The position numbers were made by a program, and so were the translations under genes. A stretch of 64,000 nucleotides of DNA from Chlorobium sp. (GTDB lineage: Bacteria; Bacteroidota; Chlorobiia; Chlorobiales; Chlorobiaceae): assembly GCA_005843825.1 (NCBI GenBank), contig SZXX01000040.1, positions 2,215-66,214 on the forward strand, given 5' to 3'. The notes below the pieces were generated by a model. It made no database searches, had not been told where the DNA came from, and was given only the letters and a program-made list of their open reading frames with translations. Of the stretch, positions 29,159 through 47,510 are shown piece after piece (the stretch's first letter is position 1; every line of letters starts with the position of its first letter).

Positions 29159-30700
29159 ATGAAACGCTTAATTGCGGAACGCGAAAAAGCTCGCCTTGGA
29201 GGCGGAGAAAAGCGAATAGAAGCACAGCATAAAAAAGGAAAATTCACAGCGCGTGAACGTGTGGATATGCTGCTTGACGAGGGTAGTTTTGAAGAGTACG
29301 ACATGTTTGTCACCCACAGGACCACTGATTTCAACCTGGATAAGGAACAGTTTCTTTCCGACGGGGTGATCACCGGACATGGAACCATCGATGGACGTAC
29401 CGTTTATATCTTTTCTCAGGACTTTACTGTACTGGGCGGCTCCCTTTCAGAGACTAATGCCCTTAAAATCTGTAAGGTCATGGATCAGGCGATGAAGGTT
29501 GGAGCACCTCTTATCGGCATTAATGACAGCGGCGGAGCAAGAATTCAGGAAGGAGTGAGAAGCCTTTCCGGATATGCAAGTATTTTTCAGCGAAACATTA
29601 TGGCTTCGGGCGTCATTCCACAGATATCAGCTATTTTCGGGCCGTGTGCCGGTGGTGCAGTTTACTCTCCTGCCCTTACTGACTTTGTTGTCATGGCTGA
29701 AAAGACCAGTTACATGTTTGTCACCGGTCCGAAAGTTGTTAAAACTGTTACCGGCGAAACCATCACTGATGAAGATCTTGGCGGAGCACATGTTCATGCG
29801 ACAAAATCAGGAGTCACCCATTTTGTAGGGGCTAATGAAACCGAAGGTATACTTCTGATAAAAAAACTGCTCAGTTACCTGCCCCAGAACAACCTTGAAG
29901 AACCACCACTGGCCGTCTGTAGCGACCCTGCCGACCGGTTGGATGATAAGCTGAATACTATCATACCTGACAAGCCATCCATTCCCTATGATGTCAAGGA
30001 TATTATACATTCGATTGCTGACAATGGAGAGTTTCTCGAAGTGCAGCGGCAATATGCCCGAAACATCGTTGTGGGTTTTGTAACTTTTAATGGCATATCA
30101 ACCGGCATTGTAGCAAATCAGCCGAACTACCTTGCAGGATGCCTTGACATTAACGCATCACGCAAAGCGGCCCGGTTTGTGAGATTCTGTGATGCCTTTA
30201 ATATCCCTATCGTTACCCTTGTTGATGTCCCTGGATTCCTTCCTGGAAGTGCCCAGGAGTTTGAAGGTATTATCAGTAATGGGGCGAAACTGATATTTGC
30301 TTACGGAGAGGCCACCGTCCCGAAAATCACTATTATCCTGCGAAAGGCCTATGGAGGTGCTTACATTGTCATGAGTTCCAAACAGTTGCGCGGGGATGTC
30401 AATTATGCGTGGCCTACAGCAGAAATTGCGGTCATGGGGCCTATAGGCGCTATTGAGGTGCTGTATAATCGCGATCTTAATGCAATCGAAAACCCTGAAG
30501 AGCGTGCCAAGTTTGTGGCAGATAATGCGGCAGAGTATCGTGAGAAATTTTCCAACCCTTATGAAGCAGCAAAATACGGCTATATTGACGACATCATAGA
30601 GCCACGCAATACCCGGTTCAGGATAATCCGTGCTTTACAGACGCTGTCAACCAAGAAAGACGTCAACCCTCCAAAAAAGCACTCAACTCTGCCACTTTAA
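29159..30700 (+). CDS. mmdA: Methylmalonyl-CoA decarboxylase alpha subunit / carboxyltransferase (PccB family)
   Basis: 513 aa with a typical PccB/12S N-terminus ([33 protein letters not shown]) and [15 protein letters not shown] motifs. Confidence 0.85.
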
Positions 30701-30715
30701 CGTGAAAATACCACA

Positions 30716-31096
30716 ATGACAACAATCGTTCATCTGTTACCGATTGATCTTTCCGCTATCGGGCATGAACATCTCACTCTTGCCCTCATCGGCTATAGCA
30801 TTGTGTTTATTTCGCTTTTTCTGCTTTTTCTGGTGTTCAGCATGCTGCCGAAGTTTCTTACCCGCAACTTGAGAAGAAAATTTCAAAAAGAGGGTGGAGA
30901 AGAAAAAGCAGCACTTGCCGGCACTATGGTTCAGGGAGAGGTCAGTGCCGCTATCGCCACAGCTATATCGCTCTACCTTGAAGAGCTGCATGATGAGGAA
31001 ACGGCAATTCTTACGATAAAGAAAGTTGGAAAATCCTATTCGCCATGGAATTCAAAAATCTATAACGTTATTAATTTTAACCGGTTTCAACGATGA
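30716..31096 (+). CDS. OadG/MmdD-like small membrane subunit
   Basis: 126 aa with one N-terminal TM helix. Positioned between the carboxyltransferase and biotin-carrier genes. Confidence 0.55.
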   Translation: MTTIVHLLPIDLSAIGHEHLTLALIGYSIVFISLFLLFLVFSMLPKFLTRNLRRKFQKEGGEEKAALAGTMVQGEVSAAIATAISLYLEELHDEETAILTIKKVGKSYSPWNSKIYNVINFNRFQR

Positions 31097-31509
31097 GGCG
31101 ATATAAATTTACAATAAGCGGAAACAAGTACAGTGTTGAAATCAAATCCCTTGAGGAGAATATTGCCGAGGTCGAGGTAAACGGGACATCGTACCAGATT
31201 GAACTGGGTAAGGAAGTCAAAACGCCACAAACCCCGAAACTTGTCCGCTACACTCCTCCAGCTGAACCAAAAGCGCCGGTGCTCAATTCGCCTGGCCTTT
31301 GTTTGATTAAGGCTCCCCTTCCCGGGACAATTATCGCAATTTCGGTACTGCCGGGCATGCAGATTAAACTTGATCAGCCAGTCATTGTTCTTGAAGCCAT
31401 GAAAATGGAAAACAATGTTTTTGCAGAAAAAGCCGGTACTGTAAAATCAGTTAAAGTTGCTGTAGGTGATACCGTGATGCAGGGCGATGTTCTGATTGAA
31501 ATTGAATAA
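31093..31509 (+). CDS. Biotin carboxyl carrier subunit
   Basis: Pro/Ala-rich linker and biotinylation motif EAMKMEN. Biotinyl-lipoyl fold C-terminus. Confidence 0.85.
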   Translation: MRRYKFTISGNKYSVEIKSLEENIAEVEVNGTSYQIELGKEVKTPQTPKLVRYTPPAEPKAPVLNSPGLCLIKAPLPGTIIAISVLPGMQIKLDQPVIVLEAMKMENNVFAEKAGTVKSVKVAVGDTVMQGDVLIEIE

Positions 31510-31517
31510 ACACAACT

Positions 31518-32654
31518 ATGGAAGGGATTGTACGTTTTGTTGAGAATTCCGGTTTTGCCAATCTGACACCAGGACACCTGCTGATGATTCTGGTCGGACT
31601 GCTATTCATTTTTTTTGCCATCCGATATGAATATAAACCTCTTCTTCTCGTCCCGATAGGATTCGGGATACTGATCGGTAACATACCATTTGTTGAACAT
31701 GCCGGCCTGCACCTTGGCATATATGAGGAAGGGAGTGTGATGAATTATCTTTATATGGGTGTGCTGAAAGGGATATTTCCGCCTCTGATTTTTCTCGGAA
31801 TCGGTGCCATGACTGATTTTTCACCGCTGATTTCAAACCCCAAGCTTATGCTGCTCGGTGCGGCGGCACAGCTTGGCATTTTTTTAACCTATATCGGCGC
31901 TATTTCTCTGGGGTTTACTAATCCCGAAGCGGCATCTATCGGAATAATCGGCGGTGCTGACGGCCCAACGGCAATTTTTCTTTCTTCAAAGCTTGCACCA
32001 CATCTCATCGGTCCTATCGCTATTGCGGCCTATTCATACATGGCCCTTCTTCCACTCATTCAGACTCCGATAATGCGTCTTTTGACCACAAAAAAAGAAC
32101 GCAGAATAAAAATGAAACCTCCCCGGTCTGTAAGCAAACTGGAAAAAATACTCTTCCCTGTGGTTGCTCTTCTTCTTACAGGATTTATCGCACCGGGCTC
32201 GCTGCCGCTTCTCGGGATGCTTTTTTTAGGTAATCTGCTCAAAGAATCCATGGTGACACAACGTCTCGCAGATACAGCAAAAAATACCATGATCGATATA
32301 GTCACCATTATTCTTGGCCTTACCATCGGCGCCTCAACCCAGGCGACAACCTTTCTTACACAACAATCATTGCATATTTTTGTGCTCGGCGCAACTGCCT
32401 TTATGTTTTCAACGGCTGGCGGAGTGCTTTTTGCCAAAATCATGAACCTTTTTCTTTCAACAGAAAACAGGATCAATCCTCTGATTGGCGCGGCAGGAGT
32501 CTCGGCTGTGCCTGACAGTGCGCTTGTAGTGCAGATGGAAGGGCTGAAAGCTGATCCCGACAATCACCTGATCATGCATGCCATGGCTCCAAATGTTGCA
32601 GGTGTAATCGGTTCGGCCGTTGCTGCAGGTATTATGATGAGTTTTTTATTGTAA
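31518..32654 (+). CDS. Na+-transporting decarboxylase beta subunit (OadB/MmdB/GcdB family)
   Basis: 378-aa polytopic protein. Motifs FPPLIFLGIGAMTDF, GGADGPTAIF and GAAGVSAVP are characteristic of the family. Confidence 0.9.
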   Translation: MEGIVRFVENSGFANLTPGHLLMILVGLLFIFFAIRYEYKPLLLVPIGFGILIGNIPFVEHAGLHLGIYEEGSVMNYLYMGVLKGIFPPLIFLGIGAMTDFSPLISNPKLMLLGAAAQLGIFLTYIGAISLGFTNPEAASIGIIGGADGPTAIFLSSKLAPHLIGPIAIAAYSYMALLPLIQTPIMRLLTTKKERRIKMKPPRSVSKLEKILFPVVALLLTGFIAPGSLPLLGMLFLGNLLKESMVTQRLADTAKNTMIDIVTIILGLTIGASTQATTFLTQQSLHIFVLGATAFMFSTAGGVLFAKIMNLFLSTENRINPLIGAAGVSAVPDSALVVQMEGLKADPDNHLIMHAMAPNVAGVIGSAVAAGIMMSFLL

Positions 32655-32725
32655 CCGGCGCCGTTTTATTCGCTCATGAAGGGAGAGAATAACCAAAACC
32701 GGATATTGAAACGCTATAAGAACAT

Positions 32726-34840
32726 TTAAATCAAAGAGACGACTTTTCTTAAAAGAATCATGTTGTCGATTGGTTTTACGAGGTAATCGTTCATGCCGTA
32801 GTGCTTCGCCTTCAAAACAGTTTCTTGACTTGAATCGCCACTCAGACCGATGATGGGAATGTTTCTATAGGTACATTTTTCCGAACGGATATGCTTTGTC
32901 GTTTCAAGACCATCCAGAACCGGCATTTGAATATCTGTAAGCATCAGGTCACAATGATGGTTATTCAAAATGTCGAGTGCTTCTTCTCCGTTTGATGCCT
33001 CCATCACTGTTAAGTCAAGCTGCTGAAGTAAACTTTTTACGAAAAGAAGGTTGACTGCCGAATCATCCACAATAAGGACAACCTTACCGGTAAAGGATCC
33101 CTTGAATATATCATTTGTCGCTTTTAGTGCTGTAGTCAGTCCCTGCAAAACCTCAGAAAGAACCAGCGGCATTGAAAGGAGTCCTTGAATGCCTGACTGT
33201 TCGCCTCTCGAACGCGCCATAAAGAGAGGCTCTTTTGTATATCCGACAATAGGCATAACTTTTCCGCTCTCCCTGATCCTGTAAGCAAGCTCATAACCAT
33301 CGAAGCCAGGTAAGTCAAGGTTTGCAAAAAGAAGGTTATATCCACCTGAATCTATCATCGTCATTGCATGGGCACTACCGACTGCCTCGTCTGCCGTAAC
33401 AGCAAGCGGGGCAAGAAAACGACGAATCAGTAAAAGATTCTCCGGGTCATCATCAACTAGCAAAAGCTTCTTCCCTGAAAAGAATTCTCTATGTTCAGCA
33501 TAGAGTTGTGATTCATAGGAAGCAACTTCGGACACACTAAGCACGGGAAAACTCAAGATAAATTCGGTAAACTCTCCATACTCTGAATTGCATGTGATAT
33601 CGCCTTTGCAGGAGTGCATAACACGCTTGCAGAAGGTAAGACCAAGACCCGTGCCTCCTTTCTTTCTTGAGGTAAAAAAAGGATCGAAAATTTTGCCCAG
33701 GATTTCCTTGGCAATACCCGGACCGTTATCCCTGATAATAACTCTGTTCCGGCTTTCACCACGCTGGAGACGAATATCAATACGACCGGCAGGATTTGAG
33801 CGGAGAAAATATAATGCATTCATTATCAGGTTGAAGAGAACAAAAATATAAATGCTCTCAGCACCTCGAAACGTAAAATCATCACCATAATGAAAATGAA
33901 CCTTGTCACGTTCGATGTTCGATTCATAGCTGTATTCATCAATCGCTTTGCGAGTTAAGGCTGTTATGGAAAAACAGGTAAGGTCATTCTGCATTGAGTC
34001 TTCATCCTTGACCTCTTCAAGAATCATATCAATAATCTGTATACCCCGGTTGACTGCCATCTGACCCTGAAGCGCACTTTGACAAATTTTTTCAATACCA
34101 TTCGTAGCAATTAGCGGGAACGCATTTTTTTCCTGTAATCGCTCAATGTCCTGCTGGATAGCATTAAAATTATTGCGTATCTGCCCCAGAGGATTACGCA
34201 TCTCATGAGCGATGCCTCCTGCAAGAGCCTGTAATGCAGTGTTCCGTTCCATGGCTTTAAGACCAAGTCGATTACTGTAGCTGAAGAGGTAACCTGCAAC
34301 AATGGTAAAGGTAAGTACTATGCTGTAGAGTGGAATATTGAAGGTCGGATGGAGTTCAACGTGAGGAACCGAAAGAAAATAAAACAAAACAGCTCCGAAA
34401 ACTCCAATGGACAGATCAACAAGAAACATCAGCCAGTTGGGAACGTATGTAATCAGCACAAACAACATGAAAATTTCCCAGTACAGCCAGAGTTCATGAA
34501 AATTGTTCATGATAAGATTGACCGTAAAAATAAAGGGCAGAACAAAAATAAGGGACCCGTGCCAGTAAGAGGGGAAGTGGTGCCTGACAAAAGCGGGCAG
34601 CTTATCTTTAAGTATAATGGCCAGGCAGAGCAGGGTTGCTATAAGCCGAAGAACAAAATTTTCATATGGGAGATGAAATCCATACTTGAAGGTGAAATAA
34701 AAAAAGAAATGTGCCGGTGCGCCAAGTGCAGCTGCAGAAAGAGTATTGAAGCGGGTAACCTGTGTACCTTCCCTCATGCACTCCCGAATATAGGATAAGA
34801 TTCTCTTCAACTCCCACTCCCGAGTAATTTGTCGACACAC
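32726..34840 (-). CDS. Hybrid sensor histidine kinase (multi-TM sensor, HisKA, HATPase, two receiver domains)
   Basis: About 6 N-terminal TM helices, H-box GGIAHEMRNPLGQI, DNGPGI, GGTGLGL. REC1 (LLLVDDD...NLDLPGFDG) and REC2 (VLIVDDS...LTDIQMPVLDG...VKP). The start may be 34777. Confidence 0.85.
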   Translation of the reverse strand: MCRQITREWELKRILSYIRECMREGTQVTRFNTLSAAALGAPAHFFFYFTFKYGFHLPYENFVLRLIATLLCLAIILKDKLPAFVRHHFPSYWHGSLIFVLPFIFTVNLIMNNFHELWLYWEIFMLFVLITYVPNWLMFLVDLSIGVFGAVLFYFLSVPHVELHPTFNIPLYSIVLTFTIVAGYLFSYSNRLGLKAMERNTALQALAGGIAHEMRNPLGQIRNNFNAIQQDIERLQEKNAFPLIATNGIEKICQSALQGQMAVNRGIQIIDMILEEVKDEDSMQNDLTCFSITALTRKAIDEYSYESNIERDKVHFHYGDDFTFRGAESIYIFVLFNLIMNALYFLRSNPAGRIDIRLQRGESRNRVIIRDNGPGIAKEILGKIFDPFFTSRKKGGTGLGLTFCKRVMHSCKGDITCNSEYGEFTEFILSFPVLSVSEVASYESQLYAEHREFFSGKKLLLVDDDPENLLLIRRFLAPLAVTADEAVGSAHAMTMIDSGGYNLLFANLDLPGFDGYELAYRIRESGKVMPIVGYTKEPLFMARSRGEQSGIQGLLSMPLVLSEVLQGLTTALKATNDIFKGSFTGKVVLIVDDSAVNLLFVKSLLQQLDLTVMEASNGEEALDILNNHHCDLMLTDIQMPVLDGLETTKHIRSEKCTYRNIPIIGLSGDSSQETVLKAKHYGMNDYLVKPIDNMILLRKVVSLI

Positions 34841-36123
34841 TCACCCGCAGCCCTGAAACATGCTTCAATAGATGCTCCCCGTCGGTAATCCCCTGTGGAT
34901 CCAAAACCGGCAAAAGGTTTAAGCTTATTATCGACTTCCAGAAGCAGCCTGTGATGGAAAGGAGAATACGCGCACAATCCTTCGGTAATATACCGGTACG
35001 CGAAAGACTCTCTGGTATTGTCACTTATCGTGAAATACGATCCGGCAATCCGTTCTCCAAGAGCTATAACCTCTTCAGGAACTGAAGACTCCGAAATAAC
35101 TGATCTCGAAGCCCTTCCACTGAACGTATAACGAACGAGATTGAGATCATTGATTCCATAAGCTCCGGCATTGCTTAAGGGAAATGAGTGATCGAACACC
35201 ATTGCCCGCTGGGACTTCTGAAAAACATCCCGGCGATACTTCACAATGGCTACTGCTACAGGGTAATACTTTACTTGCCGCAGCAACTCTGAAGCCTCAG
35301 GAAGAACATCATTAAGCAATGCACTTAACCTGGCAGCGGACAGGGCTGAAATAACCTTATCATATACTGCCGATTCAGAAACACCCCTTTTCAGGAAATC
35401 TAGCTTGATCGAACCTGATACCGGATCGTTTGAAACTGAGGTGACCCTTTGTCCTGCAAGAATTCTGACCGAACCTGCTCCTGCAAAGAGGTGGAAAGCA
35501 TCAAGCATTCCATGCATCCCTTTTTTCAACTGCTCATAACTATCGATGACAAGAGCAAGATTTGAGCCAAAATTTCCGAGATAGCATTCATCCGGTTCTG
35601 CGCCATTCATGCGGACAGTAACCGGCCTTACGACATGGCCTAAACAGGGCTCTTTCAAATAGCCGGCAAGAGAGAGGTGATCATACTGTTCAGAAAGAGT
35701 GTTGAAATAATCACTGTCGAGTACTCCCTGACTACGGTCTTTCATAATTACCCGGACATGAGGATAAAGCTTCCTTATACCGTCAATTCCACACATACCG
35801 ATAAGCCGCAGGATATTAAGAAGTTTCGCTCCCTCCTTGTTGATTCTGACAACACGACCATTGATAATTTGCGATGTATTGAACCCGAAATACTCATAAT
35901 CATTAACACCGCAAGCACTTACAAAGTCGCGAAACAGCCGGTAATTTTTACCAATATTTTTCCCTCCAAAATCAAGCCAACGACCTTGAAGCTCTTCACT
36001 TCCGATCCTTCCGCCGATCCTGTCTTCAGATTCATAGAGATCCACCTCAATATTTCGCTTCGAAAGGTAATATGCCGAAGCGATCCCTGAAATACCGCCA
36101 CCAATGACTGCTACGCGCATCAT
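34807..36123 (-). CDS. FAD-dependent oxidoreductase of the amine-oxidase / protoporphyrinogen-oxidase (HemY/CrtI) superfamily
   Basis: N-terminal dinucleotide fold VAVIGGGISGIASAYYL...LYESEDRIGGRI. 438 aa. Start overlaps the upstream gene stop (ATGA). Confidence 0.8.
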   Translation of the reverse strand: MMRVAVIGGGISGIASAYYLSKRNIEVDLYESEDRIGGRIGSEELQGRWLDFGGKNIGKNYRLFRDFVSACGVNDYEYFGFNTSQIINGRVVRINKEGAKLLNILRLIGMCGIDGIRKLYPHVRVIMKDRSQGVLDSDYFNTLSEQYDHLSLAGYLKEPCLGHVVRPVTVRMNGAEPDECYLGNFGSNLALVIDSYEQLKKGMHGMLDAFHLFAGAGSVRILAGQRVTSVSNDPVSGSIKLDFLKRGVSESAVYDKVISALSAARLSALLNDVLPEASELLRQVKYYPVAVAIVKYRRDVFQKSQRAMVFDHSFPLSNAGAYGINDLNLVRYTFSGRASRSVISESSVPEEVIALGERIAGSYFTISDNTRESFAYRYITEGLCAYSPFHHRLLLEVDNKLKPFAGFGSTGDYRRGASIEACFRAAGECVDKLLGSGS

Positions 36124-37112
36124 AGTGATGGCTCCGCTTCAAGAATTCTGCTGACTTTTGCTGCAAACTGCATTTTGCATCTTGATGATATTTTTTCAAT
36201 CCGCTCTTTCTGTTGCAGGTAGTGGTGCTCACTCATAAAAGCGAACGCTTTCAGCTCTGCTTCAGCGCACACCTTGCCCCACTGCATGACCTGAACAAAA
36301 ACAGAGACCTCCCGGTCATCACCTGTCTTATCTGCTGAAAAACTACCGTATGCTCTGATGACAATGGGGGTATCACGCTCAAGATAATGAAAAAAATTTG
36401 TATTATAGCTCAAAAGCGCAAGTTTCCCGTCTAAAGATAACCCCAAAATATGTGTAATTGCGACAGCCGCCTGTCGGAGTGCTTCCAACATCAGCATTCC
36501 CTGAATATGGTCTGAAGCATGATCGAAGGTCAGCTCTTCAGTATCGTTGAACATATTGAAATAGAGGAGCTTACCAGCGGAATAAAACTCTGAAATCAGC
36601 ACATTGGAATCACTTTTTTTATGCACAAATTTTTTATCCAGAGAGCATGGGGAACTGTCATCTGCTGTTATGGCCAGGGGGCTCTTCATCAGACTTTTCA
36701 GGTCGAAGGGCAGCTTGCGCATCAAATCGGCTGCAGTCTCTATACCAAAAGGAGGGTCTGTCTTAACCCCGGAATATGAAAAAGCTTTGACCTCCGCGTA
36801 AACCTCGGGATTCGACCTGCGATAATCAGGGGAAATATAGATTTCACATGTATCACGGAGCAGAAAAAGAAAACGGTTTGCCTCTTCAACTGAGGAAACA
36901 TTAACTGCCTGCAAAACGCCAGCCTGAACAGGAAGTTTATCGCCATCGAAAATGAGCGTAAAAGCCTTTTTTCCAGGATTCAGGGTAAGAACGCCGTTAT
37001 CTTTTTTAGGCAGTCTGAACGTTCTCTGTATTGGCAGTCGAGTTATCGGCGATGGCTGAAAGGTTGTTCGAAACTGGTGGGTAAGAGAGCGGCTAACGGA
37101 TTGTTTTAACAT
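36120..37112 (-). CDS. AfsA-like (A-factor biosynthesis hotdog) domain protein with an unrecognised N-terminal half
   Basis: aa ~160-295: FVHKKSDSNVLISEF...FDHASDHIQGMLMLEALRQAAVAITH...F.HYLERDTP matches the AfsA repeat signature (HK...NVL...DH..DHvPGMllLEAaRQaa...F..y.E.d.P). Confidence 0.55.
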   Translation of the reverse strand: MLKQSVSRSLTHQFRTTFQPSPITRLPIQRTFRLPKKDNGVLTLNPGKKAFTLIFDGDKLPVQAGVLQAVNVSSVEEANRFLFLLRDTCEIYISPDYRRSNPEVYAEVKAFSYSGVKTDPPFGIETAADLMRKLPFDLKSLMKSPLAITADDSSPCSLDKKFVHKKSDSNVLISEFYSAGKLLYFNMFNDTEELTFDHASDHIQGMLMLEALRQAAVAITHILGLSLDGKLALLSYNTNFFHYLERDTPIVIRAYGSFSADKTGDDREVSVFVQVMQWGKVCAEAELKAFAFMSEHHYLQQKERIEKISSRCKMQFAAKVSRILEAEPSL

Positions 37113-37461
37113 GATAAACTCCAGTAATTATTTAAAAATGAACTGTTTCTTGCAAAAGCAGTAACCTTATTCCTAAAGGCTTCACTTTTGTCGTGAAAAT
37201 ATTTTTAAGTGTATATGAGGGTTACTGTTATTGTTTAATATACTTTTAATAGAAAATATTAATCCGATAAACATTCATTTTTTGACACGTTTATCACTTT
37301 TTTTTTGCTTTTTTTCATAAACTCAACACTTGGTCCGACGAATAGACGAAAGGTTATAACAAACTCAAGAGTCACCGTTGAAACTGACATCTACGATTGA
37401 GGATATTTGTTCCTGCAATACTTCCGGAAGTTTCGGGATTTTCGTATTTTTGGCTTTTTAA

Positions 37462-38469
<1,008 letters not shown>

Positions 38470-40632: not shown

Positions 40633-40847
40633 AGCCTCTTTAACTGGTCATCTGCGAAACTAACGAATTTTTGAAAAACACCCTCATGTGATGCTCGATA
40701 CCTCACTCCTACATCACAATTTCAAATTGCACTAGTCAAAAATGTGAACAATGTTACGCACTTTTCTTTGCGTTTGCGCAAATAATACGTATTTATACTG
40801 CAAATAATAGCGTAAAAAGTGTGAGCGGAATCCAAACCGTCATTTCA

Positions 40848-43800
40848 ATGAACAAAGCGTATCGCTTTTGCAGGAACATGGCCAGGAACAACTGGGTCAC
40901 CACTTCCATCGTGACTCTCACACTCCTTCTGGCGGGCAAAACTCATGCATTACCAATCAATGGTCAGACTGCAGCTGGAAAAGCCACCATCAGCAAGCCT
41001 TCTACCGCCGAAATGCATATCGTTCAGGGAAGCAGCCGGGCCATCATCAACTGGGACTCTTTCAGCATCGGCAAAGGTGAATCGGTCAACATTACCCAAC
41101 CAACCAGTCAATCAACCCTGCTCAACCGGGTCCTGGGCAACAACCCTTCAGAAATTTTCGGGTCACTCTCGGCCAATGGACAACTCTTTCTGATCAACCC
41201 TGCCGGTGTGATTTTTGCACCTGGAGCATCTATAAACGCTGGAGGGCTGGTTGCGTCAACTCTCGGAATAAAGAACAGCGATTTCCTCTCAGAAAAATAC
41301 ACGTTTATTAAAACCGGGACTGCCGCCTCAGTAATCAACCAGGGCAACATAAATGCCGGCTTCGCTGCACTTCTCGGCAGCTCTGTCGAGAATTCAGGAA
41401 CCATGATAACGTCGAAAGGTTTGGCCGGGATAGCTGTCGGGGAAGGAATCACGCTCAACATGGATCCTTATGGACTTGTTGCTATTAAGGTTGATGAGGC
41501 AACTTATAACGCCCAGATAATAAACAGCGGCGTTATTGAGGCCAATGGCGGCACAGTAGTGATGACAGCAACAGCAGCTGACGCACTGCTTTCCACAGTA
41601 GTCAACAACAGTGGAAAAGTACGGGCTGCCTCTATCACTGAAAACAACGGCAATGTCATAATTGAAGCCGGAACTGTCATCAACTCTGGAATTATCGAGG
41701 CAGGGAATAAGATCGATGCAAGCGCTGCCGGAGCGATGGTCAACACCGGAAAACTATGCGCAGAGAAAATCAAGGTCAGCGTTAATAACCTCATCGATGC
41801 AGGTTCCTGGGAAAGCGGCAATATCCTCATGCATGCTGCCGGGAGCATTGAACAAACTGCTGCCAGCACCATAAATGCCGATGGTGACAATGGCGGATAT
41901 ATCTCCATCAGTGCTGAAAAAAGCCTCTACCTCTCCGGAGCATTGAGCGCATGCGGAAGTGCGTACCAGGGAGGGGAAATACGGATCACTGCACCGGAAA
42001 CAATCCTTGCCGGTACGAAAGTCAAGGCCGATGGAGTGAACGGGGGCGGCAGAATCTTCATAGGCGGTGGATGGCAGGGCAATGATGTTACCCTTGCTAA
42101 CGCAGAAAGCACACTAATATCATCAAGCAGCAAGCTGACCGCAAGCGCCCTTGACAAAGGCAACGGGGGTACGGTAGTCGTCTGGTCAAACCAATGCACC
42201 TCATATTCAGGCACTATAGAGGCTGAAGGTGGAATAAACCTGGGAAACGGTGGGAATGTAGAGGTCTCCAGCCATGACAGGCTTACTTTTGAAGGTAATG
42301 TCGTCACCGCCTCTCCCAAAGGCGAAAACGGTCTGCTGCTGCTTGACCCACGAAACATAACGATTGACAATAATCCCACAGCTCAAACTTTCTCCCTCAT
42401 TCCATTGCTCGATGCCAATCCCAACACCGGCGACCAGCATGGCTCCGGCAAAATAATTGAACTGGCAAACGGCAATATTATCGTTTCCAGTCCATCAGAT
42501 GATTTTGTTGCCACTGATGCCGGGGCCGTCCGCCTTTTCAGACAGGACGGGACACTGCTCTCCATACTGACTGGTTCAACGGCCAATGATATGGTAGGCA
42601 ATAATGTGACAGCCCTTACCGGCAATAACAATGCTGTCGAATCAACACCAAACTGGACCAACTCTGGCCAGGCAAACGCTGGAGCCGTTACTTGGATTGA
42701 TGGCACAACAGGTATCAGCGGAAATGTGTCGGCAATAAACAGTCTGGTCGGTTCCTCTGCAAATGATTGTGCAGGAAGCGCAATAACAGTGTTAACGAAC
42801 GGAAACTACGTTGTAAGCTCTCCTCACTGGAACAGCAACACCGGCGCTGCCTCGTGGGGTGATGGTGCAACAGCCGGCAGTCGATTGACTGGCCCGATAT
42901 CCGATCTCAACAGTCTGGTAGGCTCTTCCCCGAGTGATGCTATTGGCACTAATGTTACCGTTTTGACAAATGGAAACTATGTGGTGAGTTCGGGAAAATG
43001 GGATAAAGTCAATGCCGACAATACCATTATTATTGATGCCGGGGCAGTTACATGGTGCAACGGGCTTGGAGGTACAATAGGTACTGTCTCTACCTTCAAT
43101 AGTTTGTTTGGCTCAAATAAAAATGATTTCACAGGATCTAATGAAGCTAACTCAAATAACGTGACTGCCCTGACGAATGGAAGCTATGTGGTTTGTTCAG
43201 GATATTGGGATAATGGCAAAGCCGTCAATGCCGGAGCAGTTACCTGGGGGGACGGGAACGGAGGTACAGTTGGAGCGGTAAGCGCCGACAACAGTCTGGT
43301 AGGCTCTAAAACAGGTAATCAGGTAGGATATGGCAATGGAGCTGTTACTGTGCTGAGCAATGGGAATTATGTCGTGACCTCTGGGTTATGGGATAACGGG
43401 ACAGCCACCAATGCAGGGGCAGTAACCTGGGGAAGCGGGAGCGGAGGCACTGTTGGCTTTGTCAGTGCCCTCAACAGTCTGGTGGGCTCAACAAAAAATG
43501 ATTACTTAGGATCCGACGATGGTGCTTCAAATAACGTAACAGCACTGAGAAACGGAAATTATGTTGTCAGCTCAAAATACTGGGATAACGGGACCGTCGT
43601 CGATGTGGGGGCCGTTTGCTGGGGGAACGGATTTGGAGGCACAATCGGAACTATAAATGCCTCCAACAGTCTCCTGGGCTCTCTTCCCAATGATAGAATG
43701 GGCTCTGTGGTAACTGCTCTATCCAATGGCCACTATGTGGTTGGCTCACCAAACTGGAACAACGGTGCCGGCGCAGTGAGCTGGGGGAACGGCGAAGCAA

Positions 43801-46800
43801 ACGGCACACGATTGAAGGGAGAAGTATCGGTAGATAACAGCCTGATCGGTTCGTCGGCAAATGACGGAATTGGCTCTTCGATTATAGCTCTGACCAACGG
43901 TCACTACGTGGTTGCTTCCCCCAACTGGAACAACGGTGCAGGTGCGGTGACCTGGGGAGACGGCGAAGAAGGCGGCGCAAGGTTGAAGGGAGAAATATCG
44001 GTTGATAACAGCCTGATTGGATCGAGTGCCAATGACGGTATTGGCCGGAGTATAACAGTCCTGACTAACGGTAACTATGTTGCCTCTTCCGGATATTGGG
44101 ATAAGATCAATGCGGACAATAGTGTCGTTACCGATGCAGGTGCCGTCAGTTGGGGGAACGGCCTTGGTGGCACGACTGGAATAGTCAGTGGATCCAACAG
44201 CCTGATTGGATCAACAAAGAATGACTATGCTGGATCAGATGATTTGAAATCGAATAACGTGTTTGCTCTCCCGAACGGAAATTATGTGGTCAGTTCAAAA
44301 TACTGGGATAATAACAGCGCTGTCAATGCTGGAGGGGTAACCTGGGGGAATGGGCTCGGTGGAACAGTTGGAGCAATCAGCACCGCAAACAGTCTGGCTG
44401 GATCAAGAACAGGCAATCAGGTTGGCAGCGTAACCGTTCTGCCAAACAGCAATTACGTCGTTACATCACTGCTCTGGGATAATGGGTCAGCCACCAATGC
44501 CGGAGCAGTCAGCTGGTGTAATGGAGTTGGAGGCAATGTCGGGGTTGTGAGCTCACTTAACAGTATGGCCGGTTCAGCAAAAGAGGACCAGGTTGGCTCT
44601 GGAGGCATTACGCCCCTCACTGTCGGGGATATGAAGGGTTGTTTTGTTGTGAGCTCTCCGGCATGGCTGAACAGCAGCGGTCGGGTTGATATTTTTGTGC
44701 CTCTCTCCATCACACAGAAATACACATCCAATCCCGACACGGATAACTCCTTCACGCCTTACGAAATCACCACTCTGCTTAATGCCGGCGAGAATGTGAT
44801 CCTGAAAGCCAACAACGACATTACTGTCAATTCGGATATTTTCAGCAGCAATCCCGCTATAAATAGCGGTAATCTTGCACTGAATGCCGGGCGAAGCATT
44901 CTCATCAATGCCAGCATTTCCACCAGAAACGGCAACCTGACGCTCACAGCCAATGACTCCAAAGAGAGTTGCGTTGTGGATGCCTTCCGCGCTGATGGCA
45001 GGGCGGTGATCACCATGGGAGCTGGCTCAAGTATCAATACCGGAAGCGGGAGTGTTACCATGGAACTGCGCGATGGAGCCGGCAACACAAACCGCGAGAG
45101 CGGCAATATCACTCTGCGCGATATCACCGCAGGCACAATCAGCGCCTTGAACAATGGGCTCACAACAGGCTCCGGCATTACACTCGCTTCGGGAACTCTT
45201 GCGGCCAATGCGACCAGCGGCAACAGCATAATACTTGCGGGCAGTAATTTCGACAACAGCGCAGGCGGAATACTCTCCACGTCCGGCACTGCCCGATGGT
45301 TAGTCTATTCGGACAACCCCGGCGCTACCATCAAGGGTGGACTAACGTCTGACTTCCGGCACTATAACGCCAGCCACAGCAACTATGCTCCTAACGATGT
45401 AAGTGAATCCGGAAACGGCTTTATCTACACTTCTGCAGCAGGAGCTATATCAGTCTCCCCGACTCTCGTCAGTGGAAGTGCCGGCAGCATCTACGGAGCT
45501 ACGCCAACAGCTGCGTTTGGTTATACACTGAGCGGCTCCGATAACGAAGATACGATAGGAAATATTAGCTTAACCGGCACCATGATATTGACCGGTGTTC
45601 CTACAGCAGCGTCAAATGCAGGTAGTTACACCATAAACTACGGAGGCGGTTTGTCAAGCAGCATCGGACTGACCTTTACTGCCGGAAACGGGCTCAGATA
45701 CAGTGTAGATAAAAGGGCAATCAACATTTCTGCCAATGCAGTAAGTAAAACCTACGGGGATGCCGACAAGACACTTAACTGGCTGGCTGAAACCCAGACT
45801 GGGAATCGAGGACTCATAGCCGGTGACAGCTTCAGTGGCGCACTCGGGCGAACTGCAGGTGAAAATATCGGCACCTTCGCTATCAATCAGGGATCGCTTG
45901 CCAACAACAATTATACGATCAGCTATAACGGCAGCAACCTGACTATAAACCCGCGTCCGATTACTTTACAAGCTATAGCCACAAGCAGGATCTATGGTGA
46001 AACTGACACAAAACTGGCTGTAGCTATATCGAGCGGATCTTTAGGCAGCGTAACAGTAAATGACGCATTGAGCGACGTTACCGGCACCCTGACCCGGCAA
46101 ACCGGCAGCGGTGTCGGCAGTTACGATATCTCCCTCGGTGCCGGCACAAAGGCTGGCAACTATGCCATCACATTTGCCAACGATAACAATGCTTTCTCAA
46201 TCACCCAGCGACCGATTATCATTTCGGCCGATGCAAAGAGCAAGACCTACAGCATCACCGATCCAAAACTGACTTGGGTGGCAGAATCCAAAAGCAGCGG
46301 TCGAGGATTGATTTACGGTGACAGCGACAGTTTCAGCGGCACACTCGGGCGAGCAGACGGCGAGAATGTTGGAAGCTATGCAATTACTCAAGGCTCACTG
46401 AATAACAATAACTATCTCATTTCCCTGACCGCAGCAGATCTTACCATCACTGCGCGCCCTATTTCCCTGCATGCAACATTAAAAAGCAAGATCTACGGTG
46501 AGCCGGATCCAAACCTTGCGGTCAGCATCACCAGCGGCACTTTGGGCAACGTAACGGTGAGTGATGAGTTAAGCGATATTACAGGCACTCTAACCCGGCA
46601 GGCTGGCAACAGTGTCGGCAGTTATGATATCAGCCTCGGTTCAGGCACAAAAGCTGGTAACTATGCCGTCACGTTTGCCACCGATAACAATGCCTTTGCA
46701 ATCACCCAGCGACCTATTATCATTTCTGCCGATGATAAAAGCAAGAGCTATGGGGAGAGTGATCCTACTCTCACCTGGCAATCCAACTCTTTAGGCACCG

Positions 46801-47489
46801 GACGCGGACTTATACCCTGTGACAGCTTCAGCGGCACACTCGAGCGGACAGATGGTGAAAACACTGGAACATATGTAATCAATCAAGGGACACTGGGAAA
46901 CAGCAATTACAAGATCAGTTTTAATGATGCAAACCTGACCATTAACAAGAGCATGCTCCCGCTTTCAACCACTGTGCCTGCTACAAACTACTCCGTAAGT
47001 AAAATAACTGCCATGCAACAGCAAGCGAGTCATGATGCCGTCAATACCGGCAGAAGCAAAGAGTTTTTCATGACCCCAATAGCCATAACCACTGCACCGG
47101 CAATTACTACCCGCGACTTGCCGGTAATCGACAAGAGCAAATTGTCACCTAGAGAATCTTCTCAAACTCGAAAGCCAGACCAGACGTCGGCTGCTCATGA
47201 CTTATCTGCCGTTTCAACCATTGAAGCGCATGAGCCAGCAATGGAATTTTTCATCCTCCCTATTCCACAAGAAACATTCAAAGACAACAATCCAGAGGCT
47301 GTAATCTCTATAAAGGTAGGCCTGGTCAACGGCTCTTCAATTCCTTCCTGGATGTCATTTGATCCAAAACAAAAAATCTTAAGCGGCACACCTCCTCCAG
47401 ATGCAAAAGGAGAGTATAAGGTGGAACTTATCGCCAAGGACCAGTTTGGCGGTGAAGCACGGACAGTAGTGTTGGTGAAGGTTGGATAA
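40848..47489 (+). CDS. Two-partner-secretion exoprotein (TpsA, filamentous-haemagglutinin-like adhesin)
   Basis: ESPR-type extended signal (MNKAYRFCRNMARNNWV). TPS domain (IINWDSFSIGKGESVNITQP...LNRV...LFLINPAGVIF). Beta-helix repeats, ~13 NGNYVV/AGAVTW repeats, 6 MBG-like modules, C-terminal cadherin/Ig-like domain. The track ORF begins at a GTG at 40821. Confidence 0.9.
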   Translation: MNKAYRFCRNMARNNWVTTSIVTLTLLLAGKTHALPINGQTAAGKATISKPSTAEMHIVQGSSRAIINWDSFSIGKGESVNITQPTSQSTLLNRVLGNNPSEIFGSLSANGQLFLINPAGVIFAPGASINAGGLVASTLGIKNSDFLSEKYTFIKTGTAASVINQGNINAGFAALLGSSVENSGTMITSKGLAGIAVGEGITLNMDPYGLVAIKVDEATYNAQIINSGVIEANGGTVVMTATAADALLSTVVNNSGKVRAASITENNGNVIIEAGTVINSGIIEAGNKIDASAAGAMVNTGKLCAEKIKVSVNNLIDAGSWESGNILMHAAGSIEQTAASTINADGDNGGYISISAEKSLYLSGALSACGSAYQGGEIRITAPETILAGTKVKADGVNGGGRIFIGGGWQGNDVTLANAESTLISSSSKLTASALDKGNGGTVVVWSNQCTSYSGTIEAEGGINLGNGGNVEVSSHDRLTFEGNVVTASPKGENGLLLLDPRNITIDNNPTAQTFSLIPLLDANPNTGDQHGSGKIIELANGNIIVSSPSDDFVATDAGAVRLFRQDGTLLSILTGSTANDMVGNNVTALTGNNNAVESTPNWTNSGQANAGAVTWIDGTTGISGNVSAINSLVGSSANDCAGSAITVLTNGNYVVSSPHWNSNTGAASWGDGATAGSRLTGPISDLNSLVGSSPSDAIGTNVTVLTNGNYVVSSGKWDKVNADNTIIIDAGAVTWCNGLGGTIGTVSTFNSLFGSNKNDFTGSNEANSNNVTALTNGSYVVCSGYWDNGKAVNAGAVTWGDGNGGTVGAVSADNSLVGSKTGNQVGYGNGAVTVLSNGNYVVTSGLWDNGTATNAGAVTWGSGSGGTVGFVSALNSLVGSTKNDYLGSDDGASNNVTALRNGNYVVSSKYWDNGTVVDVGAVCWGNGFGGTIGTINASNSLLGSLPNDRMGSVVTALSNGHYVVGSPNWNNGAGAVSWGNGEANGTRLKGEVSVDNSLIGSSANDGIGSSIIALTNGHYVVASPNWNNGAGAVTWGDGEEGGARLKGEISVDNSLIGSSANDGIGRSITVLTNGNYVASSGYWDKINADNSVVTDAGAVSWGNGLGGTTGIVSGSNSLIGSTKNDYAGSDDLKSNNVFALPNGNYVVSSKYWDNNSAVNAGGVTWGNGLGGTVGAISTANSLAGSRTGNQVGSVTVLPNSNYVVTSLLWDNGSATNAGAVSWCNGVGGNVGVVSSLNSMAGSAKEDQVGSGGITPLTVGDMKGCFVVSSPAWLNSSGRVDIFVPLSITQKYTSNPDTDNSFTPYEITTLLNAGENVILKANNDITVNSDIFSSNPAINSGNLALNAGRSILINASISTRNGNLTLTANDSKESCVVDAFRADGRAVITMGAGSSINTGSGSVTMELRDGAGNTNRESGNITLRDITAGTISALNNGLTTGSGITLASGTLAANATSGNSIILAGSNFDNSAGGILSTSGTARWLVYSDNPGATIKGGLTSDFRHYNASHSNYAPNDVSESGNGFIYTSAAGAISVSPTLVSGSAGSIYGATPTAAFGYTLSGSDNEDTIGNISLTGTMILTGVPTAASNAGSYTINYGGGLSSSIGLTFTAGNGLRYSVDKRAINISANAVSKTYGDADKTLNWLAETQTGNRGLIAGDSFSGALGRTAGENIGTFAINQGSLANNNYTISYNGSNLTINPRPITLQAIATSRIYGETDTKLAVAISSGSLGSVTVNDALSDVTGTLTRQTGSGVGSYDISLGAGTKAGNYAITFANDNNAFSITQRPIIISADAKSKTYSITDPKLTWVAESKSSGRGLIYGDSDSFSGTLGRADGENVGSYAITQGSLNNNNYLISLTAADLTITARPISLHATLKSKIYGEPDPNLAVSITSGTLGNVTVSDELSDITGTLTRQAGNSVGSYDISLGSGTKAGNYAVTFATDNNAFAITQRPIIISADDKSKSYGESDPTLTWQSNSLGTGRGLIPCDSFSGTLERTDGENTGTYVINQGTLGNSNYKISFNDANLTINKSMLPLSTTVPATNYSVSKITAMQQQASHDAVNTGRSKEFFMTPIAITTAPAITTRDLPVIDKSKLSPRESSQTRKPDQTSAAHDLSAVSTIEAHEPAMEFFILPIPQETFKDNNPEAVISIKVGLVNGSSIPSWMSFDPKQKILSGTPPPDAKGEYKVELIAKDQFGGEARTVVLVKVG
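42447..44700 (+). repeat. About 13 tandem coding repeats of 55-70 aa inside tpsA
   Basis: Recurrent unit NSL.GS...D..G..VT.L.NGNYVV.S..W(D)N......AGAVTWG.G.GGT.G..S. Two adjacent copies (about 43725-43895 and 43896-44066) are 171-nt paralogues. Confidence 0.85.
45711..46950 (+). repeat. About 2.5 copies of a 501-bp coding unit (two MBG-like modules per unit) inside tpsA
   Basis: Modules alternate A-B-A-B-A. A type is SK.YG..D..L.W......GRGLI.GDSFSG.L.R..GEN.G.Y.I.QG.L.N.NY.I. B type is S.IYGE.D..LAV.I.SG.LG.VTV.D.LSD.TGTLTRQ.G..VGSYDISLG.GTKAGNYA.TFA.DNNAF.ITQRPII. For example, 46044 and 46545 align at the DNA level. Confidence 0.85.
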
Positions 47490-47510
47490 CAGACTGAATA
47501 ACTTGATTTA

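Follow-up and report, generated by a model that had tools for sequence, protein, structure and literature searches.

A translationally coupled AfsA-type hotdog protein, PPO-like flavoenzyme and CqsS-family kinase trio as a candidate quorum-sensing-type module in Chlorobium

In Actinomycetota, synthases of the AfsA/ScbA/BarX/MmfL family make gamma-butyrolactone, butenolide and furan signals, together with BprA-type reductases and ArpA/ScbR TetR-type receptors. In the CqsA/CqsS system of Vibrio and the LqsA/LqsS system of Legionella, the synthase gene adjoins the gene of a receptor with a six-TM sensor on a LuxN/CqsS-type HisKA-HATPase core plus receiver, and the phosphorelay needs an Hpt; the known ligands of the CqsS receptor family are diffusible autoinducers, and in its known systems the cognate synthase is encoded alongside (PMC3376566). 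Green sulfur bacteria (GSB) already have cqsA/cqsS (PMC10158934). LuxM/LuxN (Vibrio AI-1) and RpfF/RpfC (DSF) likewise set a lipid-derived autoinducer synthase beside a polytopic hybrid kinase whose signal-binding site lies in the membrane. Here we analysed a 64,000-nucleotide stretch (the window) of a Chlorobium sp. MAG, in which an AfsA-type hotdog protein, a flavoenzyme and a hybrid histidine kinase are encoded together. Judged from sequence and gene neighbourhoods, the operon most likely makes and senses a small lipid-like signal through these three products, and we put at roughly 0.6 the probability that the trio is a self-contained cell-cell signalling (quorum-sensing-type) module, a synthase/receptor variant of CqsS-type quorum sensing. 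The first-pass annotation had proposed an undescribed producer/sensor architecture; we found no description of an AfsA-type synthase paired with a CqsS-type receptor in the literature searched, whereas the receptor family itself (CqsS/LqsS) is already known.

The open reading frames first described were all found on the minus strand, at 36120-37112, 34807-36123 and 32726-34840. ORF checks and Pfam assigned the first (330 aa) to the AfsA-type single-hotdog protein and the second (438 aa) to the PPO-like FAD enzyme; their ATGA stop/start overlap at 36120-36123, already noted, is read directly in the sequence, and the same junction in orthologs is an overlap of 4-10 nt. The third frame, at its full open length, had suggested either a 34-nt overlap or a 29-nt gap with the flavoenzyme gene at 34807-34840, and ortholog alignment replaced both. 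Orthologous kinases begin "MK..SYIR..EGTQ", most of them at an ATGA shared with the stop codon of the flavoenzyme gene, and the matching position in the window is a TTG (34810-34808), preceded by GGGAG and overlapping the TGA stop at 34809-34807. Since the orthologs start at this aligned position, the kinase gene most likely begins at TTG 34810 and spans 32726-34810 (minus strand, 694 aa), with a TTGA start/stop overlap at 34807-34810. The three minus-strand genes are a translationally coupled operon with 4-nt start/stop overlaps at both junctions.

Consistently with the AfsA signature read earlier in the C-terminal half of the first protein, Pfam AfsA (PF03756) matched residues 162-290 with a score of 131.5 bits (cut-off 24; E=2.6e-38), over model positions 1-132 of 133, and no Pfam model matched the N-terminal 160 aa, as had also been anticipated. 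NCBI annotation already calls the protein "AfsA-related hotdog domain-containing protein". The motifs VHK..NVL and FDHxSDHxQGMxxxEAxRQ were invariant across its family. Like actinomycete AfsA, it has the hotdog domain with the family motifs and a redox enzyme gene immediately downstream; unlike the actinomycete proteins, it carries one repeat, not two, and is extended by an N-terminal domain and a helix at the C-terminus. Residues 1-39 were predicted to be disordered, residues ~40-135 formed a small alpha/beta domain without family match, and the single hotdog domain (162-290) was followed by a long helix (295-329). The NCBIfam ScbA/BarX model reached 54 bits against a cut-off of 200, over the second-repeat part only; because of this failed equivalog model and the single repeat, the chemistry may differ from that of AfsA. 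Foldseek with the AF2 model (pLDDT 79) retrieved single hotdogs only, namely generic thioesterases and FabZ; because AfsA itself belongs to the hotdog family, and no solved structure for the AfsA family was found, a generic hotdog fold does not discriminate between AfsA and its fold relatives. Such matches, the single FabZ-like domain and the short-looped, membrane-embedded sensor of the kinase would fit a plain thioesterase or dehydratase within a lipid-remodelling stress system, in which the kinase senses membrane state and the enzymes modify acyl chains. We consider this improbable, since the AfsA HMM was matched end to end (131 bits), the AfsA-specific FDHxSDHxQGM/EAxRQ motif is present, thioesterase and FabZ families were absent from the Pfam output for this protein, and the receptor family is known for diffusible autoinducers as ligands (PMC3376566). 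We propose that the product of 36120-37112 is an autoinducer synthase.

The second gene encodes an FAD-dependent oxidoreductase of the PPO/amine-oxidase/phytoene-desaturase superfamily, with matches to Amino_oxidase (PF01593, E=2.1e-24) and NAD_binding_8 (PF13450) that bear out the HemY/amine-oxidase-type N-terminus described initially. M. xanthus PPO was the best PDB match of the family profile (E=6e-21), and the AF2 model (pLDDT 91.5) placed the PPO structures 2ivd/2ive at the top of Foldseek (TM 0.79-0.80), with an overall fold and FAD-binding domain like those of the HemY/PgoX/CgoX oxidases. Moreover, JGI pipelines call its homologs "oxygen-dependent protoporphyrinogen oxidase", the operon is divergent from hemB in the window, hemA/C/D lie 4 kb away in a related locus (L061), and "HemY homologs" were reported in all 11 GSB by Kobayashi et al., while Kato et al. 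found none in C. tepidum (PMC4231631). On these grounds the flavoenzyme could be the missing oxygen-independent HemY-type protoporphyrinogen oxidase of GSB, and the operon part of tetrapyrrole metabolism, a reading that we regard as highly improbable. The enzyme fell below both PPO equivalog cut-offs (59.4 vs 97.85 and 69.6 vs 517), with a match to the PPO models that is essentially the FAD-binding N-terminus; its identity to the PPO structures is 16%, with MAO and PDS folds scoring almost equally (~0.74); and its gene always accompanies those for AfsA and the kinase rather than haem genes, including in non-phototrophic MAGs and at loci far from haem genes. Furthermore, only four of the best 120 homologs came from contigs above 1 Mb, so that most classical complete GSB genomes appear to be without the gene, which would be unexpected for an essential enzyme. 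The flavoenzyme is nearest to PPO yet, by model cut-offs, not HemY. Every homolog sampled, down to 44% identity, sits between the AfsA gene and the kinase, the family being confined to the trio as far as sampled, and we propose that it is a redox tailoring enzyme for the AfsA product. It would stand in the place of the SDR/NADPH reductases of actinomycete AfsA systems, although PPO-like flavoenzymes are, to our knowledge, not a type known from butyrolactone, furan or butenolide pathways. An SDR reductase gene adjoins the nearest non-trio AfsA relatives in Corallococcus, paralleling AfsA-BprA.

The third gene had been described as a multi-TM hybrid kinase with two receivers, and Pfam and TM analysis upheld this layout (about six hydrophobic helices, HisKA with H-box His202, HATPase_c and two receivers) with one amendment: receiver 2 is canonical (Asp626), and receiver 1 (aa ~445-560), which is extra relative to CqsS/LqsS, is degenerate, being poorly conserved with Asn at the phospho-acceptor position. 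Alignments placed the six-TM sensor at aa ~20-180 (34256-34810, minus strand), embedded in the membrane with very short loops. The kinase core had LuxN_Vibrio as its top NCBIfam match (293 bits, model positions 460-799, kinase core and receiver only), whereas profile searches found no relation between the TM sensor and the nine-TM domain of LuxN. A HMMER profile of the sensor retrieved 683 representatives among 1.84 billion proteins, with LuxN-type cores in nine of ten sampled members. Kinase P0345, whose gene adjoins a CqsA fragment (NF005526, E=1.3e-18), was aligned with the window kinase by BLASTP over 403 aa comprising the whole TM domain and core (E=6e-61, 33% identity), and the window sensor was 56% identical to that of a kinase beside full-length cqsA. 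These alignments place the kinase in the CqsS/LqsS quorum-sensing receptor family.

CqsS residues are numbered here on the V. cholerae sequence as we presume it to be, checked at its six published positions and through its resemblance to database proteins. In the trio kinase, Trp108 and Phe168 correspond to the conserved W104 and F162 of CqsS, and Trp111 lies at the S107 position. The roles of W104, S107, F162 and C170 have been described, the S107 position governing head-group recognition (PMC3376566). At this position all flavoenzyme-linked kinases had Trp (70/70) and all three cqsA-linked receptors examined had Ser; the trio ligand is presumably not an alpha-hydroxyketone. The Trp is not exclusive to AfsA-linked receptors, since ~17 metagenome loci encode close paralogous kinases with the same Trp and have no AfsA or flavoenzyme gene within 6 kb.

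The survey of gene neighbourhoods strongly favoured the trio as a unit. Of 36 Chlorobiaceae genome loci, 31 had complete and colinear AfsA, flavoenzyme and kinase genes and five were cut by contig ends, so that all 31 untruncated loci agreed and none was a counter-example; the same order was found at ~40 metagenome loci, and the trio was also present in C. tepidum TLS and on a C. phaeobacteroides-type contig. The Chlorobi contexts numbered at least three, and the trio itself lies in two of these. Six non-Chlorobi contexts sampled held a complete trio (L006, L007, L046, L047/L062 and L063), colinear in five; in L046 the flavoenzyme and kinase genes are convergent to the AfsA gene. Non-phototrophic Pseudomonadota/Rickettsiaceae MAGs are among the carriers, and the hosts are Chlorobiota and Pseudomonadota rather than Actinomycetota. 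Because gene order is kept in dozens of genomes while the flanks are unrelated between contexts, the linkage exceeds chance. No Pfam-annotated trio neighbourhood contained a TetR-type gene. Some trios were duplicated in tandem, and additional paralogous kinases occurred next to the trio, both patterns being typical of signalling systems.

At locus L112, from a Chlorobaculum relative with flanks 87-96% identical to C. tepidum TLS, the chromosomal slot that holds AfsA-flavoenzyme-kinase in TLS contains a full-length cqsA (NF005526, 590 bits vs cut-off 428); the adjacent kinase shares 67.6% identity with the trio kinase of C. tepidum. No flavoenzyme gene was found in this slot, a further point against an indispensable role in haem synthesis. 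The exchange of AfsA plus flavoenzyme for cqsA with the receptor kept looks like a synthase swap; unlike PLP-dependent CqsA, the trio's synthase side would pair an AfsA-type hotdog protein with a PPO-like flavoenzyme, in genes that run in the same direction as the receptor gene and are translationally coupled to it. The synthase family also differs from those of LuxM/LuxN and RpfF/RpfC. In Paraburkholderia, a KAS III-like gene adjoins the same receptor family.

We propose that the kinase is the receptor for the operon's product, a membrane histidine kinase in the place of a cytoplasmic TetR repressor; this wiring, already suggested by the first-pass annotation, gains support from CqsS/LqsS membership and from cqsA at the syntenic locus. 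Co-location would also be expected if the kinase merely regulated the two enzymes, and AfsA and flavoenzyme might make a non-signal product (a membrane lipid head group, a pigment-related compound or an antimicrobial butenolide), with a kinase that only controls or accompanies the pathway and senses membrane state, an alpha-hydroxyketone or some other hydrophobic cue coming from neighbours. Consistently with such an arrangement, AfsA-type domains also serve antibiotic chain release rather than signalling in gladiostatin biosynthesis (PMC7756379); GSB cqsA/cqsS exist, so a CqsS paralog could hear related signals (PMC10158934); and the solo paralogous kinases carry the same Trp. Phosphatase, exporter, Hpt and response regulator genes were not found near the trio in Chlorobi, and the lack of a nearby exporter or dedicated response regulator points the same way. 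We judge this regulated pathway rather unlikely in view of the near-obligate coupling (all 70 distinct kinases directly downstream of the flavoenzyme gene share one sensor type, and every untruncated locus with AfsA-flavoenzyme also has the kinase), the retention of the receptor where the synthase genes are exchanged, and the cognate adjacent synthases of this receptor family (PMC3376566).

In the signalling module that we favour, the AfsA-type protein would act, by analogy with AfsA, in transferring a fatty-acid-derived beta-ketoacyl group to dihydroxyacetone phosphate as the small hydroxylated acceptor, to give a butenolide/butyrolactone-type precursor. Since its single repeat stands against the two fused repeats of actinomycete AfsA, the protein probably works as a homodimer. 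The flavoenzyme might then carry out a BprA-like C=C reduction, or a desaturation or oxidation. The resulting amphipathic molecule would enter membranes and bind the six-helix TM pocket of the kinase, switching its kinase/phosphatase balance, and phosphate would pass from His202 to Asp626, to an Hpt and to a response regulator; proteobacterial versions have kinase and Hpt fused, whereas in Chlorobi the Hpt would be encoded elsewhere.

The intergenic region from which the operon and hemB diverge (37113-37482), analysed by composition and alignment, is AT-rich as first described: G+C falls to 0.356 across 37000-37499, compared with about 0.45 in the surrounding sequence. Minus-strand hexamers resembling a promoter (37156-37127) did not exceed shuffled expectation, and there was no Rfam match in 37113-37482. 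Close relatives share two blocks on the operon side (~37113-37165 and ~37235-37260), and a block on the hemB side (~37415-37470), which includes the palindrome CTTCCGGAAG, is kept in 9/9 aligned loci.

The operon lies on the minus strand and comprises an AfsA-type hotdog gene (36120-37112, 330 aa), a flavoenzyme gene (34807-36123, 438 aa) and a kinase gene (32726-34810, 694 aa, within an open frame at 32726-34840). The source is a Chlorobium sp. MAG, whose NCBI annotation already lists the hotdog protein as "AfsA-related hotdog domain-containing protein" and the flavoenzyme as "FAD-dependent oxidoreductase". The ATGA overlap of the hotdog and flavoenzyme genes reported in the first-pass annotation was present, while the two kinase starts it had proposed, GTG at 34840 (34-nt overlap) or ATG at 34777 (29-nt gap), are replaced here by TTG at 34810-34808 as the most likely start, since the starts of orthologous kinases, which begin "MK..SYIR.C..EGTQ" with an ATG that usually overlaps the flavoenzyme stop, align with this codon. 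The TTG is preceded by GGGAG and overlaps the TGA at 34809-34807; with this start, both operon junctions are 4-nt overlaps.

Residues 162-290 of the hotdog protein, in the C-terminal half where an AfsA signature had been noticed, matched the Pfam AfsA family (PF03756) with 131.5 bits (gathering score 24, E=2.6e-38) over model positions 1-132 of 133, and all relatives tested matched too. V163, H164, K165, N170, F196, D197, H198, H202, Q204, G205, E210, R213 and Q214 were invariant in 23 family members. The motifs VHK..NVL and FDHxSDHxQGM...EAxRQ, including the Glu and Arg of the EAxRQ helix that we take to be the catalytic residues of the AfsA family, sit in a single domain and align with both Streptomyces repeats. 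The hotdog protein has one AfsA repeat where a Streptomyces homolog (L058) has two, and scored 54.3 bits against a cut-off of 200 with the ScbA/BarX equivalog model NF041195 (model positions 205-288), so that by these two marks, tandem repeats and equivalog score, it falls outside the canonical AfsA/ScbA/BarX synthases. A homodimer of the single-repeat protein would rebuild the double hotdog. The N-terminal ~160 aa, described earlier as matching nothing recognisable, indeed had no Pfam or NCBIfam match. In the AF2 model (pLDDT 79), a disordered N-terminus leads into a small alpha/beta domain (~40-135) that matches no family, and a single hotdog and a long helix at the C-terminus follow. The N-terminal domain was lineage-variable, the Rickettsiaceae-type lineage having 178-aa, hotdog-only versions. 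Foldseek with this model yielded generic single hotdogs only and sequence search found no solved AfsA structure, for which reason a "generic hotdog fold" cannot serve as a test against AfsA membership.

The kinase begins with about six hydrophobic helices joined by very short loops (first 180 residues), followed by a core with an H-box (His202) and HATPase_c, a poorly conserved receiver with Asn at the acceptor position and a second, canonical receiver (Asp626). The proposed architecture of a multi-TM hybrid kinase with two receivers was therefore present, with the first receiver degenerate. Its top NCBIfam match was LuxN_Vibrio (293 bits, core only; next best 150), and the sensor domain matched no family in Pfam or NCBIfam. 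A word-indexed homolog search with the sensor alone gave nine fragments only and was uninformative. Searching a profile of the window-type sensor against 1.84 billion representative proteins retrieved 683 proteins at E<=1e-3 and 182 at E<=1e-10, with lengths of about 430, about 700 and about 860 aa and LuxN-type cores in nine of ten sampled members. One of these representatives (P0345, E=4.5e-12) has as its divergent neighbour a gene fragment with a match to NF005526, [quoted passage not shown] (E=1.3e-18), and is 33% identical to the window kinase over 403 aa by BLASTP (E=6e-61), from residue 29 and through the entire TM domain and core. Among 66 loci found by a metagenome scan with the trio-type sensor, L112, from a Chlorobaculum relative, carries divergently from its kinase a full-length CqsA (590 bits with NF005526, cut-off 428), and the sensor of that kinase is 56% identical to that of the window. 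The HisKA-HATPase_c-receiver hybrid layout with a LuxN/CqsS-type core is present in the trio kinase, plus the extra degenerate receiver. On these sequence relationships, the trio kinase is assigned to the CqsS/LqsS family of receptors. As corroboration only, a V. cholerae CqsS N-terminus in which W104, S107, F160, F162, F166 and C170 fall at their published positions aligned with the window sensor at E=2e-13 and with database family members down to E=3e-46.

We explored the conservation of the trio in a scan of one genome per species, in which the ORFs of all loci were searched with the three window proteins. This gave 49 loci: 36 from Chlorobiaceae/Chlorobiales, ten from Corallococcus/Myxococcaceae and one each from a Pseudomonadota MAG, a Rickettsiaceae MAG and Streptomyces. 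In 31 of the 36 Chlorobi loci the genes ran in the order AfsA-flavoenzyme-kinase, colinear and for the most part overlapping; the remaining five were truncated by contig ends, and the expectation of synteny in related genomes was thus borne out. The trio is also found in C. tepidum TLS (AE006470.1, with the AfsA and flavoenzyme orthologs at about 1273904-1276143) and in a C. phaeobacteroides-type contig. In Chlorobi it is flanked either by hemB/aroC and an OAD operon, the arrangement of the window, or by MacB/OmpA/CaMKII_AD and GH15/lpxD; outside Chlorobi the flanks include thrC and moeA, ftsK and xseA, and carAB, among others. L046, the locus of the Pseudomonadota MAG, departs from colinearity, its flavoenzyme and kinase genes being convergent to the AfsA gene, and in Corallococcus an AfsA-like gene occurs without the flavoenzyme and kinase genes, with an SDR-type reductase downstream. 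All flavoenzyme homologs, sampled to 44% identity, lay within trios. Proteobacterial trio kinases have a fused C-terminal Hpt, except that in one locus (L007) the Hpt has its own gene downstream. With a custom HMM trained on these fused and adjacent Hpt domains, neither the window nor any Chlorobi locus gave a match. The trio differs from actinomycete gamma-butyrolactone systems in having no TetR-family (ArpA/ScbR-type) receptor gene nearby: TetR_N was absent among the Pfam-annotated genes of ten loci (L001, L003, L006-L009, L059, L061-L063), a histidine kinase being found instead.

Some genomes have the trio twice in tandem or possess one more paralogous kinase next to it. In Chlorobaculum-type loci (L018, L020 and L080/L089) the entire trio is tandemly duplicated, the copies being 65% (AfsA) and 72-77% (flavoenzyme) identical. 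An additional kinase with Ser at the equivalent of CqsS S107 occurs in L018, L019, L075 and L080, with no cqsA in the DNA fetched; the idea that extra kinases beside some trios are cqsA-linked CqsS was dropped, as hemB and aroC lie upstream and tblastn found no cqsA. In Chlorobium sp. KB01 (L028, 95-1017) a frameshift or a sequencing error breaks the AfsA-like gene into two overlapping ORFs, with flavoenzyme and kinase intact; the strain may be a signal-blind "listener", or the break may stem from the assembly. Outside the trio, the closest AfsA relatives, as in Corallococcus coralloides (L050, 7887-13016), have a single repeat and partly share the N-terminal region; there the gene is followed by a reductase of the NAD-dependent epimerase/dehydratase family and a PPDK_N/PEP-utilizer protein, with no kinase nearby.

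The L112 locus allowed a direct comparison with the trio. Its flanking genes share 87-96% identity with their C. tepidum TLS counterparts (MacB, OmpA and CaMKII_AD on one side, lpxD and prs on the other), the L112 and C. tepidum trio kinases are 67.6% identical over 703 aa, and the same slot holds a divergent cqsA and kinase in L112 and AfsA-flavoenzyme-kinase in C. tepidum. In two further loci (L122/L123) this slot contains a SAM methyltransferase gene followed immediately by that of a 52%-identical kinase. Unlike in CqsA/CqsS systems, the PLP-dependent CqsA is absent beside the trio kinase, where AfsA and flavoenzyme genes are found instead; tblastn with the L112 CqsA gave no match in the window or in any trio locus.

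Other enzymes also recur beside kinases with the same sensor. The SAM-dependent methyltransferase, weakly BioC-like, was found in L122/L123 (5061-5969), L129 (8150-9034), L033 (6487-7350) and L092 (3050-3913). In the C. tepidum-type slot it immediately precedes the kinase; elsewhere it immediately follows a solo kinase or separates an extra kinase from the AfsA gene. This enzyme may serve as one more synthase or in tailoring, and its association with a same-sensor kinase recalls the PhcB methyltransferase and PhcS kinase of Ralstonia. On a Paraburkholderia caribensis plasmid (L064, NZ_CP013105.1, 4924-8565), a KAS III-like (FabH/DarB-like) gene lies 27 nt upstream of an 858-aa hybrid kinase whose N-terminal domain is 29% identical to the window sensor, which would make it another type of synthase beside the same receptor family. 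Six solo kinases with the trio-type sensor (L115-L118, L121 and L126) each have a convergent short-chain dehydrogenase of about 260-280 aa immediately downstream.

The flavoenzyme belongs to the PPO/amine-oxidase/phytoene-desaturase superfamily (Pfam). Its best PDB matches by profile were protoporphyrinogen oxidases (PPOs, E=6e-21), and its AF2 model (pLDDT 91.5) matched PPO 2ivd/2ive in Foldseek with TM 0.79-0.80 at 16% identity. A PPO-like three-domain fold is thus present, but it discriminates poorly, the amine-oxidase and phytoene-desaturase folds of the same superfamily reaching TM 0.74. Whether the protein might be a HemY-type PPO is of interest, the identity of this enzyme in green sulfur bacteria being under debate (PMC4231631). 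Although its profile and fold matches are of PPO type, we regard such a function as highly improbable: both PPO equivalog models scored under their cut-offs (TIGR00562, 59.4 against 97.85; NF008841, 69.6 against 517), with best stretches limited to residues 2-77, and the gene is patchily distributed, strictly linked to the AfsA and kinase genes, in non-phototrophs too, and missing from the L112 slot. If the trio is instead a signalling module, the HemY debate in green sulfur bacteria has one candidate fewer.

The receptor itself varied at the counterpart of a head-group position of CqsS. The positions of W104, S107, F160, F162, F166 and C170 in V. cholerae CqsS have been published, and head-group preference is set by S107 with W104 (PMC3376566). 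With numbering taken from the CqsS sequence used above, which fits these six published positions, W104 is kept in the window sensor as W108. By the same numbering, all 70 distinct kinases linked to a flavoenzyme have Trp at the S107 equivalent (W111 in the window), while the three cqsA-linked ones examined have Ser there. Trp also occurs in 17 kinases, most of them solo, that have no flavoenzyme gene directly upstream, and it is thus necessary for the trio pattern without being exclusive to it.

Since each characterised receptor of the CqsS family senses a ligand made by the enzyme encoded next to it (PMC3376566), and since coupled AfsA and flavoenzyme genes here replace the cqsA of a sister genome, the simplest reading of the trio is a quorum-sensing-type module. 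Its signal would be an AfsA-derived, redox-tailored amphipathic molecule, which the CqsS-type kinase would detect in the membrane. Established AfsA chemistry condenses a beta-ketoacyl-ACP with DHAP to a butenolide phosphate, which is then reduced; the product chemistry extrapolated from it is the weakest link of the signalling-module reading, because the hotdog protein has a single repeat and an unusual redox partner. A regulated metabolite pathway whose kinase senses something else would leave the product free of any signalling role, and we consider it unlikely given the ligand-making neighbours of characterised receptors. Beyond the trio, we tentatively propose, with a probability of roughly 0.4, that CqsS-type receptors may be a modular platform re-paired with unrelated synthases, here a single-repeat AfsA hotdog and a PPO-like flavoenzyme, elsewhere apparently CqsA, a KAS III-like enzyme or a SAM methyltransferase, and that these are exchanged at one syntenic hotspot of green sulfur bacteria while the receptor's head-group residue (Ser/Trp) changes in step.

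To our knowledge, butyrolactone-type quorum sensing is a textbook actinomycete trait, always read out by TetR repressors, and CqsS-type receptors are textbook for Vibrio and Legionella, always paired with CqsA; the trio joins the synthase half of the former with the receptor half of the latter, and the natural "swap" provides a built-in comparison. If the modular-platform reading is true, a histidine kinase would here, for the first time, be sensing a signal of the butyrolactone/butenolide class, both in anaerobic phototrophs and in some Pseudomonadota, and Gram-negative bacteria would gain a new autoinducer chemistry. The trio would also make cell-cell signalling in green sulfur bacteria approachable, with the genetically tractable C. 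tepidum TLS as a model, and provide a defined residue (Ser/Trp in TM4) for probing how a membrane receptor changes ligand class. AfsA-domain genes occur in 12 phyla and are uncharacterised beyond a few cases (PMC8209734), and green sulfur bacteria have been reported with only the cqsA/cqsS system (PMC10158934; PMC5289986). A full-text literature search, covering AfsA with LuxN or Chlorobi (AfsA with CqsS being outside its scope), found no paper linking them and none on AfsA-family genes of green sulfur bacteria. The pairing of AfsA-type and CqsS-type genes and the synthase swap appear undescribed, so that the novelty suggested in the first-pass annotation for the producer/sensor architecture applies to the combination; both halves are known families, the receptor being of CqsS/LqsS type.

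Between the operon and hemB (37483-38469, plus strand) lies the 370-bp AT-rich spacer noted previously, with a G+C of 0.356. A promoter and terminator scan of the operon gave counts not above those of shuffled sequences, Rfam had no match in 32400-37700, and repeats in the operon-hemB intergenic region were weak at most. A sigma-54 promoter candidate picked by eye upstream of the operon had GG/GC spacing off by one, and no claim is made for it. Just upstream of hemB, at 37415-37470, lies the block AAAGCCAAAAATACGAAAATCCCGAAACTTCCGGAAG, which contains the perfect palindrome CTTCCGGAAG and hardly varies across nine Chlorobium-type loci while the remaining spacer diverges; it has no Rfam match and is probably a hemB promoter or leader element. 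On the other side, a plus-strand operon of four genes (29159-32654: carboxyltransferase, OAD-gamma-like protein, biotin-lipoyl carrier and OAD-beta), which looks like a membrane decarboxylase sodium pump, is convergent with the kinase gene across a 71-bp spacer with no terminator-like hairpin. A two-partner secretion adhesin system, consisting of a 2222-aa filamentous-haemagglutinin-like protein followed by a ShlB/FhaC-type transporter (POTRA_2 and ShlB), lies at 40821-49211, 3.7 kb from the trio operon.
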